Below, piece after piece: positions 13,037 through 37,571 of a DNA stretch of 64,000 bases. Origin of the DNA: Bacteroidales bacterium. Lineage in GTDB: Bacteria > Bacteroidota > Bacteroidia > Bacteroidales > PWNQ01. The position numbers were made by a program, and so were the translations under genes. The notes under the pieces were generated by a model. The model was given only the letters and a program-made list of their open reading frames with translations. It had not been told where the DNA came from and did not search any database. The stretch's first letter is position 1. Each line of letters begins with the position of its first letter. The DNA is taken from contig JAIPAE010000001.1 in NCBI GenBank assembly GCA_021740245.1, positions 279-64,278 on the forward strand, read 5' to 3'.

Positions 13037-14261
13037 ATCCGTGAAATGCAGCCATTAACAAATCTATATCTTTATATGGAAGATTAAAATAGTCACTGAT
13101 ATATTTATTAGTGATAACCCCATTATAAATATATGTACCATTTCTGAGACCTTTGTTTTTTCGCAGCATATTTTGAATACCGCCTTCTTCAGCAATATTA
13201 AGCATCATAGGGGCAAAATAATTACTGAGAGCATGTGATGCTGTATTTGGAACCTTTGATGCTATATTTGGAACCCCATAATGAATCAGTCCATGCTTGA
13301 TAAATATCGGGTCTGCATGTGAAGTGATGCGTGAGGTTTCAAAACATCCTCCCTGATCAATGCTGATATCAATAATCACTGAGCCTTTTTGCATTCCCTG
13401 CAACATTTCTTCTGTCACAATCACAGGTGAGTGGTTATTTTGTGTGTGCATGGCTCCAATTACGACATCGGCTTCTTCCAATATTTCCTTCAGGTTATTA
13501 TTTTGAATAATAGACGTATAAACCTTTGTATTCAGCAGGTGCTGGATACGCCTAAGCTTACTGATTGTGTGATCAAATATCTTGACAGAAGCTCCCTGAG
13601 CAATTGCTGCCCGGGAAGCTGCCTCCCCTACATTACCGGCACCCAGGATAACAACTTCTACCGGAGGAATACCGGGAAAGCCACCTAACATTTTGCCCTT
13701 TCCAATATCCGGATTACTAAGATATTCGCTGGCAACCAGCATAGCCGTGTTTCCAGCTATTTCACTTATTGACATTCGTATTGGATACACATCGTTTTCA
13801 TCTTTAAGATGCTCAAATGATACAGCCGTGACTTTTTTCGGCAACATTTGCTTGAAATATTCTGATGTTTGGGCTGTAAGATGCAGTGCTGATATTATCG
13901 TTTGCCGCTCCTTAAAAAGCTCTATATCACTTTCTACTGGTGGTGCAATTTTCAAAATAATATCTGCCTGATAAACTTCTTTGCGTGTAGCTACAATATA
14001 AGCTCCGGCTTCACTGTATTCCGAATCACTGAAGTTGGCCGATGTTCCGGCATCTTTTTCTATAATTACCTGATGACCGTTCTCGGTGAGTAACTCAACT
14101 GCTGAGGGAATTAATGCTATTCGCTTTTCCTGATATGTGTTTTCGCGGGGCAAGCCTATGATAAGCTTGTCTTTTTTCTTCTCTACTTCAAGCATCTCTT
14201 CCTGGGGAAGAAGTTTGCCTTGTTGTCCATAAGAAAATATTTTCTTACTGCCGGTACTCAT
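13035..14261 (-). CDS. Alanine dehydrogenase / NAD(P) transhydrogenase alpha-like dehydrogenase
   Basis: 408 aa with Rossmann motif VVILGAGNVGEAA and an AlaDH/PNT N-terminal domain (GLPRENTYQEKRIALIP). Confidence 0.8.
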   Translation of the reverse strand: MSTGSKKIFSYGQQGKLLPQEEMLEVEKKKDKLIIGLPRENTYQEKRIALIPSAVELLTENGHQVIIEKDAGTSANFSDSEYSEAGAYIVATRKEVYQADIILKIAPPVESDIELFKERQTIISALHLTAQTSEYFKQMLPKKVTAVSFEHLKDENDVYPIRMSISEIAGNTAMLVASEYLSNPDIGKGKMLGGFPGIPPVEVVILGAGNVGEAASRAAIAQGASVKIFDHTISKLRRIQHLLNTKVYTSIIQNNNLKEILEEADVVIGAMHTQNNHSPVIVTEEMLQGMQKGSVIIDISIDQGGCFETSRITSHADPIFIKHGLIHYGVPNIASKVPNTASHALSNYFAPMMLNIAEEGGIQNMLRKNKGLRNGTYIYNGVITNKYISDYFNLPYKDIDLLMAAFHG

Positions 14262-14707
14262 ATGTGCTGTTTTGACCGGATTGAATCAGTTCTTTGATAA
14301 CTTATCAATCGTTGTTTATTTCCTGTTATTTCAATGCTTAAATATACGAAATTTTCCGGTAAAAGTTCAGCAATTTGTTCAGGCCATTCTATAAAACAAT
14401 AGTTACCCGAGAAAAAATAATCTTCATACCCGATATCAAAAGCTTCTTCAATAGTCTCCATACGGTAAAAATCAAAATGATAAATATTCCCGAATTCTTC
14501 TGAATAATATACATTGATCAAAGAAAACGTAGGTGAACTGGGCTCTTCCAAAATATTCAATGCTGAGCAAAATGATTTTATAAAAGTAGTTTTGCCCGCT
14601 CCCATTTTACCTTGAACAGCAAATATCCTTTGATTTGGATATTCTTCAAGAATTTCTTTTGCAGCTTTGTCCAGATCCAAAGGAGAAAATACTTCTATCT
14701 TTTTCAT
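14258..14707 (-). CDS. tsaE: tRNA threonylcarbamoyladenosine biosynthesis ATPase TsaE
   Basis: 149 aa with P-loop VQGKMGAGKTTFIK and an HFDFYR motif. The 4-nt ATGA overlap with ald suggests coupling. Its ATG lies inside the repeat junction motif. Confidence 0.85.
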   Translation of the reverse strand: MKKIEVFSPLDLDKAAKEILEEYPNQRIFAVQGKMGAGKTTFIKSFCSALNILEEPSSPTFSLINVYYSEEFGNIYHFDFYRMETIEEAFDIGYEDYFFSGNYCFIEWPEQIAELLPENFVYLSIEITGNKQRLISYQRTDSIRSKQHI

Positions 14708-14813
14708 CTGTTTATAATTTTGATTTTAGCGGTCAGATGGAACTCACGATGAATTTTAATCATTCTCGTGTGTGTATTTTAGAATGCTAAAATTCATGTT
14801 CGTTTCATCTGTT
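14703..14813 (-). repeat. Intergenic repeat, type B unit (111 bp, identical to 58210-58320)
   Basis: My position-by-position comparison shows identity with 58210-58320. It contains a 78-nt imperfect palindrome (14734-14811) and the junction 20-mer at 14703-14722. Confidence 0.9.
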
Positions 14814-14821
14814 AAGTTTAT

Positions 14822-16378
14822 TTATTTAGGATTTAAAACCGCAAAAGGAATTAATAATTCTTCCATTGAAATTCCACCATGCTGGAATGTATCTTTGTAC
14901 ATATTTACATATTGATTGTAGTTATTGGGATATACCAGAAAATCAAAGTTGCGGGTAAATACGTATGATGTTGAAACATTGATTTTTGGCAGGAACAATT
15001 TTTCGGGTTCTTTTACTTCATACACTTCTTTGGCTTTATATTGCAAATTTTTCCCGAATTTATAGCGCAGATTGGTATTTGTATTCCTGTCGCCCAGAAT
15101 TTTGACCGGATTTTTTGTTTTTACCGATCCGTGATCAGTAGTGATAATTACTCTGACATTCTCATCAGAAAGGTCTTCCAGTATTTCTTTTAATGGGGAA
15201 TGCATGAACCAGCTCTTGGTAATCGACCGGTAAGCCATTTCATCTTCAGCAAGTTCTTTAATCACTTCCATATCCGTGCGGGCATGCGACAATGTATCAA
15301 TGAAGTTATATACAATAATGTTTAGTTTATTATTAATTAGGTTTGGGAGTTTATCAACCAGTTTACGCCCGGCATTTAAGTTAAGTATTTTATTATAAGA
15401 ATATGACAAATCACTTTTCCCAAAACGTTTTAACATCTCACCCAGAAGTTGTTCTTCATATTTGTTTTTCGTTTCCTCTTCATACTCATCTACCCAGTAA
15501 TCCGGATATTTTTTCTTGATCTCATTAGGTAGCAACGCTGAAAAAAGGGAATTTCTGGCATATTGGGTAGCTGATGGGATGATACCGTAATAAATATCAT
15601 CCAGTTCAGTAGTATAATTTTCTTCGATGACAGGCTGTAGCGTTTTCCACTGATCATAGCGCAGGTTATCTATCAATATGAAGTATGTTGGAATATCATC
15701 ATTCAGAAAGGGAAAAAGTTTGTCCCTTAGCAAAGTATGTGATAATGTCGGTATGTTTTCCTGATTACCATGCAACCAATCTTCATAATGATGCTCATAG
15801 AATTTACTGAATACCTGATTGGCTTCTTCTTTCTGGGAATCGAGTATATCCTGAATGCTGCTATCTGTAGTTGCTTCCAGCTCCAATTCCCATTTTACAA
15901 GCTTTCTGTAAACATCAATCCAATCATTGTGGTCAAGGTTCTGATTGATCTCCATACCAATTCTGGTAAATTGTTGTTGGTACGAGTGCGTAGTTTTATC
16001 ACTAACAAGTTTTTTTGTTTCCAGAATTTTCTTGAGAGAAGACAGGATTTGTTTAGGATTGACCGGTTTGATCAGGTAATCCTCAATCCGGGAGCCAAAA
16101 GCTTCTTCCATTATATTTTCTTCCTCACTTTTGGTAATCATTATTACAGGAAGGTTGGGCCGGATATTTTTAACCTCTTCCAATGTTTCTATGCCTGACA
16201 TACCAGGCATTTGTTCATCCAGTAAAACAACATCGAAATTTTCTTCTTTTATTAATTCAAGAGCATCGCCTCCATTATTGACTGTAATCAGTTCATAGCC
16301 TTTTTCTTCTAAAAAAATGACATGTGCCTTAAGCATATCTATCTCATCATCGGCCCATAAAATCTTTATTTTATTCAT
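14822..16378 (-). CDS. porX: PglZ-domain response regulator (PorX-like regulator of T9SS)
   Basis: 518 aa. The N-terminal receiver (ILWADDEIDML ... VLLDEQMPGMSG) is followed by a PglZ/alkaline-phosphatase-like domain (ITTDHGS). This architecture is typical of Bacteroidota PorX. Confidence 0.8.
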   Translation of the reverse strand: MNKIKILWADDEIDMLKAHVIFLEEKGYELITVNNGGDALELIKEENFDVVLLDEQMPGMSGIETLEEVKNIRPNLPVIMITKSEEENIMEEAFGSRIEDYLIKPVNPKQILSSLKKILETKKLVSDKTTHSYQQQFTRIGMEINQNLDHNDWIDVYRKLVKWELELEATTDSSIQDILDSQKEEANQVFSKFYEHHYEDWLHGNQENIPTLSHTLLRDKLFPFLNDDIPTYFILIDNLRYDQWKTLQPVIEENYTTELDDIYYGIIPSATQYARNSLFSALLPNEIKKKYPDYWVDEYEEETKNKYEEQLLGEMLKRFGKSDLSYSYNKILNLNAGRKLVDKLPNLINNKLNIIVYNFIDTLSHARTDMEVIKELAEDEMAYRSITKSWFMHSPLKEILEDLSDENVRVIITTDHGSVKTKNPVKILGDRNTNTNLRYKFGKNLQYKAKEVYEVKEPEKLFLPKINVSTSYVFTRNFDFLVYPNNYNQYVNMYKDTFQHGGISMEELLIPFAVLNPK

Positions 16379-21319: not shown

Positions 21320-21532
21320 CAGATGAAACATCCATGATCCGCCTAAGGCAGAACACACACGAGAATGATTAAATGGTGTAATGAGTGATGCGATGATGCG
21401 AAAGGGCGAACGAAGCGACTAAAGCGACTTAAGCGAACGAAGAGGCGAAGAGACTGAGAGACTGAGAGAAACAACGAACAAGCACAGAACACCGAACAAC
21501 GAACACCGAGCAATATTATAAACAGATGAAAC
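21320..21532 (+). repeat. Intergenic repeat, type A unit (copy 1 of a tandem pair)
   Basis: It is bounded by CAGATGAAAC at 21320 and 21523. It aligns to the reverse complement of 58311-58530 with a few substitutions and 9-10 nt indels. Confidence 0.85.
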
Positions 21533-21684
21533 ATTCATGATCCGCCTAAGGCGGAACACACACGAGAATGATTAAATGGCGTAATGAGTAATGTGATGAT
21601 GTGATGATGCGAGAGGGCGAACTGAGCGAACTAAGCGATTTAGAGAAAAAGCGAACAACGAACAAAATTATAAACAGATGAAAA
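21523..21684 (+). repeat. Intergenic repeat, type A unit (copy 2, shorter core)
   Basis: It has the same 5' block as copy 1 (CAGATGAAACATTCATGATCCGCCTAAGGCGGAACACACACGAGAATGATTAAATGG). It ends in the exact junction 20-mer 21663-21682, which contains the ATG at 21678. Confidence 0.85.
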
Positions 21685-37414: not shown

Positions 37415-37571
37415 AATAAATGAACCAGTCAAATATCCGCCGGTAGGCGAAAACACACACGGGTATAATAATAAAGGAACACATAAATAGTGTGTGCCGG
37501 ATATTTAACTTATCATGGCGAACTCCTGCTTACAGCAGGGAGCAATGAAATCAAAATTATAAACGGATGAA
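37415..37571 (+). repeat. Degenerate member of the intergenic repeat family
   Basis: It shares ATCCGCC-loop-GGCGAAAACACACACGGG with type A. It ends in the junction 20-mer with one mismatch (37552-37571, CAAAATTATAAACGGATGAA). Confidence 0.65.

Follow-up and report, generated by a model that had tools for sequence, protein, structure and literature searches.

The 111-bp sequence that occurs twice, without a mismatch, in the 64-kb stretch of DNA analysed here (the window) is most probably a non-autonomous mobile element, a type B unit that inserts one way 5' of ATGAA(A) and belongs to a modular repeat family of Bacteroidota. Units of this family have a fixed orientation and lie directly 5' of an ATGAA(A) sequence, whose ATG starts a co-oriented gene in about 60% of cases. 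The gene's native leader is kept ahead of the unit, and new units can land before the ATGAAAC of an existing unit, giving rise to tandem arrays. The family is best explained as belonging with the small interspersed bacterial repeats rather than with sRNA genes, and it is apparently undescribed, as a literature search for both the motif and the concept returned no description of it.

The duplicated unit and its relatives in the window

Positions 14703-14813 and 58210-58320 are identical at 111/111 positions. The original prediction had placed the two copies in unrelated contexts, and their flanks are indeed dissimilar past both ends, where the identity stops. Copy 1 occupies the gap between porX (14822..16378, - strand), which encodes a response regulator with PglZ, and tsaE (14258..14707, - strand; PF02367), with porX as the upstream gene of the same operon and tsaE immediately downstream in the orientation of the unit. 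The tsaE start codon (14705..14707, - strand) falls within the 111 bp, and the repeat is therefore not confined to intergenic DNA. The type B unit itself is 101 nt long (14708..14808, - strand; nhmmer E=6.7e-12) and runs from the left-end ATGAAAC to the right-end ...TATAAACAG. The identity beyond it consists of AACAG upstream (14809-14813) and the ATGAA of tsaE downstream (14703-14707), and the porX stop codon lies 13 nt ahead of its left ATG.

The family orientation at 14.7 kb is the - strand of the window, the same sense as tsaE. Read this way, copy 1 begins with the left-end motif ATGAAAC (14802..14808), which is invariant in the B subfamily, and ends with the right-end module CAAAATTATAAACAG (14708..14722), which directly abuts the tsaE ATG. 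The ATG of the left-end motif occupies the place of the would-be native start codon. The B-type hairpin is a 78-nt imperfect palindrome at 14734..14811 (- strand), and its parts lie where the original prediction had put them: outer pairs CAGATG/CATCTG and GAAC/GTTC, a 10-bp stem formed by ATGAATTTTA (14750-59) and TAAAATTCAT (14788-97), an inner stem of CATTCT (14762-67) and AGAATG (14782-87), and a 14-nt loop CGTGTGTGTATTTT (14768-81). The family core ACACACACGAGAATGATTAAA (14755..14775, - strand) spans the loop's 3' portion together with the 3' arm of the inner stem, and its sequence is conserved in all subfamilies.

Copy 2 (58215..58315, - strand) does not differ from copy 1 and lies in a tandem array of two units, in the promoter-distal position; the ATGAAT that follows it opens just a 6-codon ORF. 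Its partner is a type A unit (58316..58527, - strand) with the same left end, core and right end and with a purine-rich, minisatellite-like tail in place of the long hairpin. The shared block ACACACACGAGAATGATTAAA joins the B unit to these longer type A units, found at 58.3-58.5 kb and again at 21.3-21.7 kb, where the first of a tandem pair (21323..21525, + strand) is followed by a second (21526..21677, + strand) whose right end is directly followed by the ATG, at 21678, of a gene of the beta-lactamase family. A profile search of the window returned these 5 canonical units together with a diverged sixth unit (37420..37566, + strand), which reads ATGAACC...ACACACACGGGTATAATAATAAA...CAAAATTATAAACGG and then ATGAAG. 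This is the only unit in the window that is antisense to its neighbouring genes, the remaining 5/6 being co-oriented. The 21-nt junction motif TTTCATCTGTTTATAATTTTG occurs 6 times in the window against 0.02 expected, and CAGATGAAA occurs 8 times, each time at a unit boundary. A Pfam scan of 40 window ORFs gave housekeeping genes throughout and no mobile-element genes, so the window is not a mobile-element island.

A repeat family with conserved ends and a conserved core

On the strand of the downstream gene, the units share a common layout consisting of ATGAAAC-NNN-CATG, a variable segment, the 21-nt conserved core ACACACACGNGNATGATTAAA, a variable tail and AAATT(A/T)TAAACAG, followed by ATG. 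In summary form, the unit end reads ... ACACACACGNGNATGATTAAA ... AAATTNTAAACAG directly before ATG. In type B, the variable segment after the left end is a 30-bp imperfect hairpin; what is conserved family-wide is the sequence of the two ends and the core. The possibility that the unit codes for protein was rejected because the reading frames of the core differ among subfamilies.

The core pattern was found at 101 loci in total, of which 75 come from GTDB contigs (one genome per species), with L046 and L052 lacking the unit layout and representing chance core matches, and 26 come from metagenomes, with the same layout. About 30 core-pattern loci belong to Puteibacter caeruleilacunae; other carriers are Marinifilum, Labilibacter, a Prolixibacteraceae MAG, Paludibacter, Paludibacteraceae MAGs, a Balneolales MAG and several unclassified Bacteroidota. 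The related copies, more than 100, span Marinilabiliales, Paludibacteraceae, Balneolales and other Bacteroidota.

The B hairpin of the window is 93-99% identical to copies in Puteibacter and Marinifilum, and when the rest of the 64 kb is compared with those 600 kb, only related A-type units and one gene at 70% match are found. In a census of prokaryotic MITEs, 97% of the bacterial elements were genus-specific (PMC11602168); against this background, the identity of the B hairpin in different bacterial families is unusual and suggests that it has recently spread horizontally. A BLAST search of phages and plasmids with the units and a pattern scan of viral contigs gave no match to the family, so no vehicle for horizontal spread was identified.

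Units abut start codons in one orientation

An ATG with an open frame of 60 or more codons directly follows 30 of the 49 terminal right ends, whereas 19.5% of random ATGs open such a frame (p=2e-10). About 39% of terminal right ends have no abutting long ORF, and 9 further right ends run directly into another unit. The sequence after the right end is nearly always ATGAA(A), also where no gene is present. The second codon is AAA in 23/30 abutted genes versus 12/50 genes of the window (p=5e-6). For 59 assessable units, the nearby genes could be compared with the orientation of the unit: for 49 the 5' end of a co-oriented gene lies no more than 600 nt downstream and another 3 point to a 3' end, leaving 7 undecided, so that 49/52 decided units point toward the 5' end of a co-oriented gene (p=5e-12). 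The genes downstream of units are functionally unrelated and include tsaE, argG, lipoproteins, kinases and a thiolase-like gene.

ATGAA(A) stands at both junctions of the unit. As the left copy always reads ATGAAAC, regardless of the gene's own codons, it may belong to the element and not represent a target-site duplication. Tandem stacking is expected if this ATGAAAC resembles the target of new units. In about half of the copies, the left end is preceded by (C/A)AG, which is not a native start context in this window.

Filled and empty sites in related genomes

Comparison of orthologous sites at porX-tsaE and argG, where units are present in some genomes and absent from others, indicates that the units arose by insertion. 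The gene order LpxA-LpxC/FabZ-LpxD-HD-PorX-TsaE-Ald... is preserved in relatives whose PorX is 81-86% identical, and their porX-tsaE spacing is 6, 24 or 86 nt, with no unit; throughout 82 kb of these relatives no units were found. The N-terminus of TsaE is MKKIEV in the window and MKTIEL in L078, from which it follows that the start codon was not moved.

The argG site in Paludibacteraceae shows several states. In two loci (L012 and L023), a tandem pair of units separates a 29-nt native leader from ATGAAAGAA, and 8 contigs with the same ArgG variant begin inside the last unit. One argG contig (L137) has the first, degenerate unit only, and 20 contigs whose ArgG is 94% identical have the stop codon, a 27-nt leader and ATGAAAGAA, with no unit. 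This comparison indicates that units insert precisely at start codons, with the native leader retained on their upstream side; the flanks of the filled and empty pairs are too diverged for nucleotide-exact breakpoints or an exact target duplication. Both cases place co-oriented units between the genes of one operon (porX-unit-tsaE and X-units-argG). There are practical consequences for gene-start annotation, as existing gene calls give ArgG 21 extra residues that are encoded in the unit, and for MAG assembly, as contigs break at units.

The original prediction had read the duplicate as a sign of recent copying or strong constraint, and had offered a DNA-level recombination or insertion structure as the alternative to its main reading. 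Both recent copying and this alternative are supported by the empty sites in relatives and by a multi-copy family whose presence varies among related genomes. The two perfect copies probably reflect recent transposition or amplification, not constraint on an sRNA.

The hairpin and the strand on which it is kept

Folding gives the hairpin on both strands, at -26.6 kcal/mol (z -2.7) on the + strand and -26.4 kcal/mol (z -6.2) on the - strand. In the - strand fold, the last ~35 nt and the AUG are unpaired. Across homologous copies, the B-type stems are kept by compensatory and G-U changes and are not broken, a pattern of covariation that the original prediction had named as a check. Pairing was counted from a hand-specified structure and per-sequence folds: in the B subfamily, 82% of cells are paired versus 40-50% with the partners slid. 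Pair 17-66 is G-C in 10, G-U in 8 and A-U in 2 sequences, pair 31-50 is C-G in 8 and U-A in 7, and L002 and L010 keep the helix with a different sequence. The gene-sense strand folds better in 22/24 variants, with a mean gain of 2.5 kcal/mol, and it is on this (-) strand that the hairpin has its G-U pairs; on the + strand they would become C-A mismatches. Because the compared sequences are related, the strand and pairing evidence is supportive and not decisive. RNAalifold applied to a MAFFT alignment returned no consensus structure, since indels put the inner stem out of register.

A stem between the left end and the sequence after the core is present only in some subfamilies. Average energies were -7.2 kcal/mol for cognate and -5.2 kcal/mol for non-cognate arms, and the sense strand had no advantage. 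The hairpin thus characterises subfamilies and not the family as a whole. In type B the arms are internal, with about 26 nt of tail past the 3' arm. Type A and other subfamilies lack inverted ends, and no terminal inverted repeats are shared family-wide. Two resemblances to known structured elements were also discarded: a hammerhead ribozyme, suggested by CAGAUGAAAC in comparison with the hammerhead core, has no Rfam support, and an integron attC site, suggested by AAC/GTT at the base of the stem, has none either, the unit boundaries not lying at GTT.

Proposed mobility and effect on the host transcript

We propose that the unit is mobilised in trans by a putative recombinase or transposase, either site-specific or guide-directed, for which the conserved ends and core would be the recognition sequences. 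Once inserted, the 14.7-kb unit would be transcribed within the porX-tsaE mRNA, with the hairpin forming in the RNA. The gene tsaE would receive a fresh, unstructured, A-rich leader ending ...AAACAG-AUG, the unit probably being co-transcribed as a replacement leader. Little harm to the host would be expected, and polarity would be avoided because no U-tract lies past the hairpin in the sense direction. Other co-transcribed hairpin repeats affect mRNA stability or processing, and by analogy the hairpin of the B unit may also influence either of these.

Neither a transposase or integrase nor an autonomous copy with the same ends was found next to the units or in the window. An autonomous copy was also sought among long ORFs downstream of units, which proved to be ordinary cellular genes only, and tblastn with an IS200 TnpA query found nothing in about 700 kb around the units, a small part of each genome. 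The case for mobility accordingly comes from the distribution of the units only. Candidate mechanisms, none of them established, are HUH single-strand transposition, guide-RNA DEDD transposition, a tyrosine-recombinase-like exchange in the shared ATGAA core and passage through an RNA intermediate.

A more specific form of this proposal, which we regard as tentative, is that the units form a class of mobile leader cassettes, not recognised before, that home on start codons. A dedicated recombinase would read the 21-nt core together with the ATGAAAC/TAAACAG junction; the element would insert precisely ahead of ATGAA(A), replace the leader and cross bacterial families, and the right end in lineages like that of the window would perhaps serve as an antisense promoter. 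Such a recombinase could be site-specific or guided by RNA or structure. If the broader reading as a mobile element is correct, the combination of asymmetric ends, single-nucleotide start-codon precision and near-identical copies across families would imply a targeting mechanism, and many Bacteroidota genes, including the operon-internal tsaE and argG, would carry translation-initiation leaders replaced by mobile cassettes. It would also bear on how the leaderless-like, Shine-Dalgarno-poor mRNAs of Bacteroidota tolerate inserted structure.

Alternative explanations

Another reading, which we consider unlikely, is that the unit is a host cis-regulatory leader RNA on the sense strand and not a selfish sequence. 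Its core and hairpin would bind a protein or an sRNA, or its mini-ORFs would couple translation, and copies would have spread because they are useful. The sense orientation of the units and their abutment to start codons fit such a role, as does the conservation of the core sequence across orders, and selection acting on the RNA is suggested by the G-U pairs of the sense strand. Type B also contains three mini-ORFs that overlap as a chain from the left ATG to the gene ATG: the first two, read from the sequence, are ATG AAA CGA ACA TGA and ATG AAT ... GAT TAA, and the third, ATG ATT AAA ... AGA TGA, has a TGA that overlaps the tsaE ATG. However, several B copies (L020, L038, L051 and L055) have a 1-nt deletion that cuts this chain, which is missing altogether from type A; with indels breaking it in several copies, a mini-ORF relay was rejected as a conserved feature. 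In addition, the downstream genes have no common function, close relatives manage without a unit at the same sites, and the tandem arrays and broken assemblies are like those of selfish repeats.

Derivation from an HUH single-strand transposon, either as a palindrome-associated element of the IS200/IS605 type or as a REPIN moved by a RAYT, appears improbable. It would account for the asymmetric ends without family-wide terminal inverted repeats, for the covarying hairpin and for fixed-orientation insertion beside a fixed pentanucleotide, the units following TTCAT on the + strand. On that strand, insertion would be 3' of TTCAT, and the right end of the unit also finishes TTTCAT. The strand bearing TTCAT is, however, the one that turns the wobble pairs into C-A mismatches, and hairpins at both ends are missing: type B has a single hairpin, and type A, like several other subfamilies, has no matching pair. 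The IS200 TnpA query had no tblastn match in the 700 kb or so around the units. REPs usually lie at gene 3' ends or between convergent genes, whereas 49/52 decided units lie at gene 5' ends.

The main reading of the original prediction, a compact sRNA gene on the + strand with a -7 box, a hairpin and a U tail, is also very doubtful. Transcription would start ~7 nt past TAATTTTG, run through the hairpin and end in the T-rich flank; by extension, each unit of this lineage could emit an RNA antisense to unit-derived leaders. The box TAATTTTG is present at 14715-14722 (+ strand), within the reverse complement of the right-end module CAAAATTATAAACAG, and has its counterpart in copy 2 at 58222-58229. 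Since the right end of this lineage, CAAAATTA, gives the box when reverse-complemented, all six units of the window have it, as does the closest relative, L036. Across the family, however, TAnnTTTG is found on the sRNA strand in 6/36 right ends, all six from this lineage, and is missing from the other 30/36. Its frequency is also near chance, with 94 occurrences in the window versus 84 expected and a probability of ~0.14 that a unit contains one match. A -33 element, TTTG, would be expected about 19-21 nt upstream of the box, but neither 14685-14700 nor the equivalent stretch of copy 2 contains it.

The 3' part of the proposed gene fares no better. The hairpin folds on the + strand too, and the + strand is often T-rich past it, as it is the complement of the A-rich native leader in most insertions. 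At copy 1 the T-rich stretch does begin at 14812, but it is moderately T-rich, lies nearly all outside the repeat and differs between the copies, so the supposed U-rich tail is flanking DNA; a terminator scan of 14400-15100 gave 0 sites. The G-U pairs that preserve the hairpin in relatives lie on the strand opposite to the proposed sRNA, and the family is oriented with its downstream genes, by 49 to 3. An Rfam scan of the window returned nothing at the gathering score and nothing relevant at E<=10, the best hit being a microRNA hairpin at 18.5 bits, and no Rfam family was matched by the unit. A lineage-specific antisense transcript from the TAATTTTG box is possible, with no comparative support. 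More generally, these results caution that a promoter-like box and a hairpin inside a repeat are insufficient for calling an sRNA gene.

Comparison with known repeats and mobile elements

Several known repeat families share features with the units. The Correia elements of Neisseria are short, non-coding, multi-copy and intergenic; they form long hairpins, vary among strains and join neighbouring mRNAs. Like Correia/NEMIS, ERIC and RUP elements, the units are short non-coding intergenic repeats that are present in many copies, can form hairpins, vary in presence and are probably co-transcribed (cf. PMC11602168). In contrast to these elements, the units have asymmetric ends (ATGAAAC... / ...TAAACAG) without family-wide terminal inverted repeats, and a fixed orientation to the downstream gene with the right end exactly at the start codon. 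The B hairpin is also 93-99% identical across bacterial families, unlike the 97% of bacterial MITEs in the census that are genus-specific (PMC11602168). With classical MITEs in general, the units have in common that they are short, non-coding, dispersed (6 units in 64 kb) and present or absent at orthologous sites; terminal inverted repeats, a further classical trait, are lacking.

The mycobacterial interspersed repetitive units (MIRUs), attributed to Supply et al. 1997, are reportedly intercistronic, oriented with the operon and often tandem, with small ORFs that overlap the flanking stop and start codons. The units likewise lie between operon genes, co-oriented and often in tandem, and the TGA of the third B mini-ORF overlaps the tsaE ATG. 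The two are unrelated in sequence, however: MIRUs, which are tandem minisatellites, have neither a long hairpin nor a conserved 21-nt core, and the mini-ORF chain of B units is not conserved across copies.

Within Bacteroidota, the BrickBuilt MITE of Porphyromonas gingivalis is intergenic, has many copies and consists of a leader, an internal minisatellite and a tail (PMC4596501), an architecture that resembles the type A units and their relatives with expanded GAGACTTAA repeats. Unlike the units, BrickBuilt is restricted to one species, has small inverted repeats at its ends and is found 49-591 nt away from coding sequences (PMC4596501). No shared sequence was seen between BrickBuilt and the units. 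A modular build is likewise common to the units and the pneumococcal BOX elements, in which conserved end modules surround a variable number of internal modules. BOX differs in sequence and has neither start-codon abutment nor spread across families.

A further parallel is with the IS110/IS1111 insertion sequences and their mini-derivatives, whose DEDD transposases are guided by seeker or bridge RNA and can act in trans on cargo that has nothing but the IS ends on either side (bioRxiv 10.1101/2024.04.26.591405). This group and the units both show strict specificity for target and orientation, but the units are far shorter than any known member, neither a DEDD transposase nor a guide RNA turned up in the window or next to units, and the link is one of analogy only. 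The IS110 group also has no inverted terminal repeats and makes no target duplication, and IS900 inserts between the ribosome-binding site and the start codon.

Consequences for annotation and assembly

Units of this probably mobile repeat family leave their mark on public sequence records, both in where genes are said to begin and in where contigs end. Because the unit tail contains an in-frame ATG without a stop, gene callers carried ArgG 21 residues too far, into the unit (P0124, P0155, P0166 and P0170, 420-421 aa; loci L012 and L023), and one cluster of such extended ArgG proteins holds 44 member sequences; the units therefore cause wrong N-termini in public annotation. Metagenome-assembled genomes (MAGs) are also fragmented by the unit repeats. 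In short-read assemblies, contigs repeatedly end inside units (L107-L114 and L136; L005, L015, L018, L027, L029, L053, L062 and L071 in JBNJHE01), as exemplified by contigs starting 24 nt upstream of argG and by core matches lying less than 300 nt from contig ends.

L085 shares its left flank and unit with L040, L099 and L101 but has a different downstream gene; either units have recombined here, or the repeat has given rise to a chimeric assembly. Complete Bacteroidota-type units also occur in contigs binned as an archaeon (L002, in a MAG labelled Methanohalobium) and as a CPR bacterium (L031, in a MAG labelled Nealsonbacteria), where mis-binning is presumably more likely than transfer.

Internal features and boundaries of the units

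In the hairpin-bearing type B unit before tsaE (14708-14808, - strand), three overlapping mini-ORFs form a chain in the tsaE sense: ATG AAA CGA ACA TGA overlaps ATG AAT...GAT TAA, which overlaps ATG ATT AAA...AGA TGA, whose stop in turn overlaps the tsaE ATG. The last frame is intact in the Puteibacter B copies despite a 3-nt difference in the tail; a 1-nt deletion breaks the mini-ORF frame in L020, L038, L051 and L055.

Type A units carry purine-rich, minisatellite-like tails built from GCGATGATGCGA, GAGACTGAGAGACT and GAACA[AC]CGAAC (21390-21510 and 58330-58450). In other MAGs (L005, L015, L034 and L037), the tails have grown into arrays of GAGACTTAA, GAGACTAA or GAACATT repeats that exceed 300 nt, with CCCCGTTAAATC...GATTTAACGGGG hairpins inside the expanded tails. 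Together, these tails and their expanded relatives resemble BrickBuilt of P. gingivalis, which is built as leader-minisatellite-tail.

Across many loci, roughly half of the units have CAG or AAG as the three bases directly preceding their left ATGAAAC, as do all three window arrays (14809-14811, 21320-21322 and 58528-58530). Among 50 long ORFs in the window, no unit-free gene start has CAG at that position. This bias and absence suggest either a broader target preference, (C/A)AG directly followed by ATGAA, or remnant right ends of lost units.

The divergent intergenic region 58051-58671 contains two antisense TAATTTTG boxes, one in the B unit and one in the A unit; these are -7-like boxes opposite to the family orientation (58222-58229 and 58323-58330, + strand). 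Both are directed at the + strand gene at 58672 and, if active, could contribute to its transcription.

The sixth, diverged unit (37420-37566, + strand; ATGAACC...ACACACACGGGTATAATAATAAA...CAAAATTATAAACGG, then ATGAAG beyond the right end) lies 14 nt beyond the stop codon of a gene for a T9SS-CTD protein. Both neighboring genes run antisense to it, and no other unit in the window departs from the rule of co-orientation with the downstream gene.
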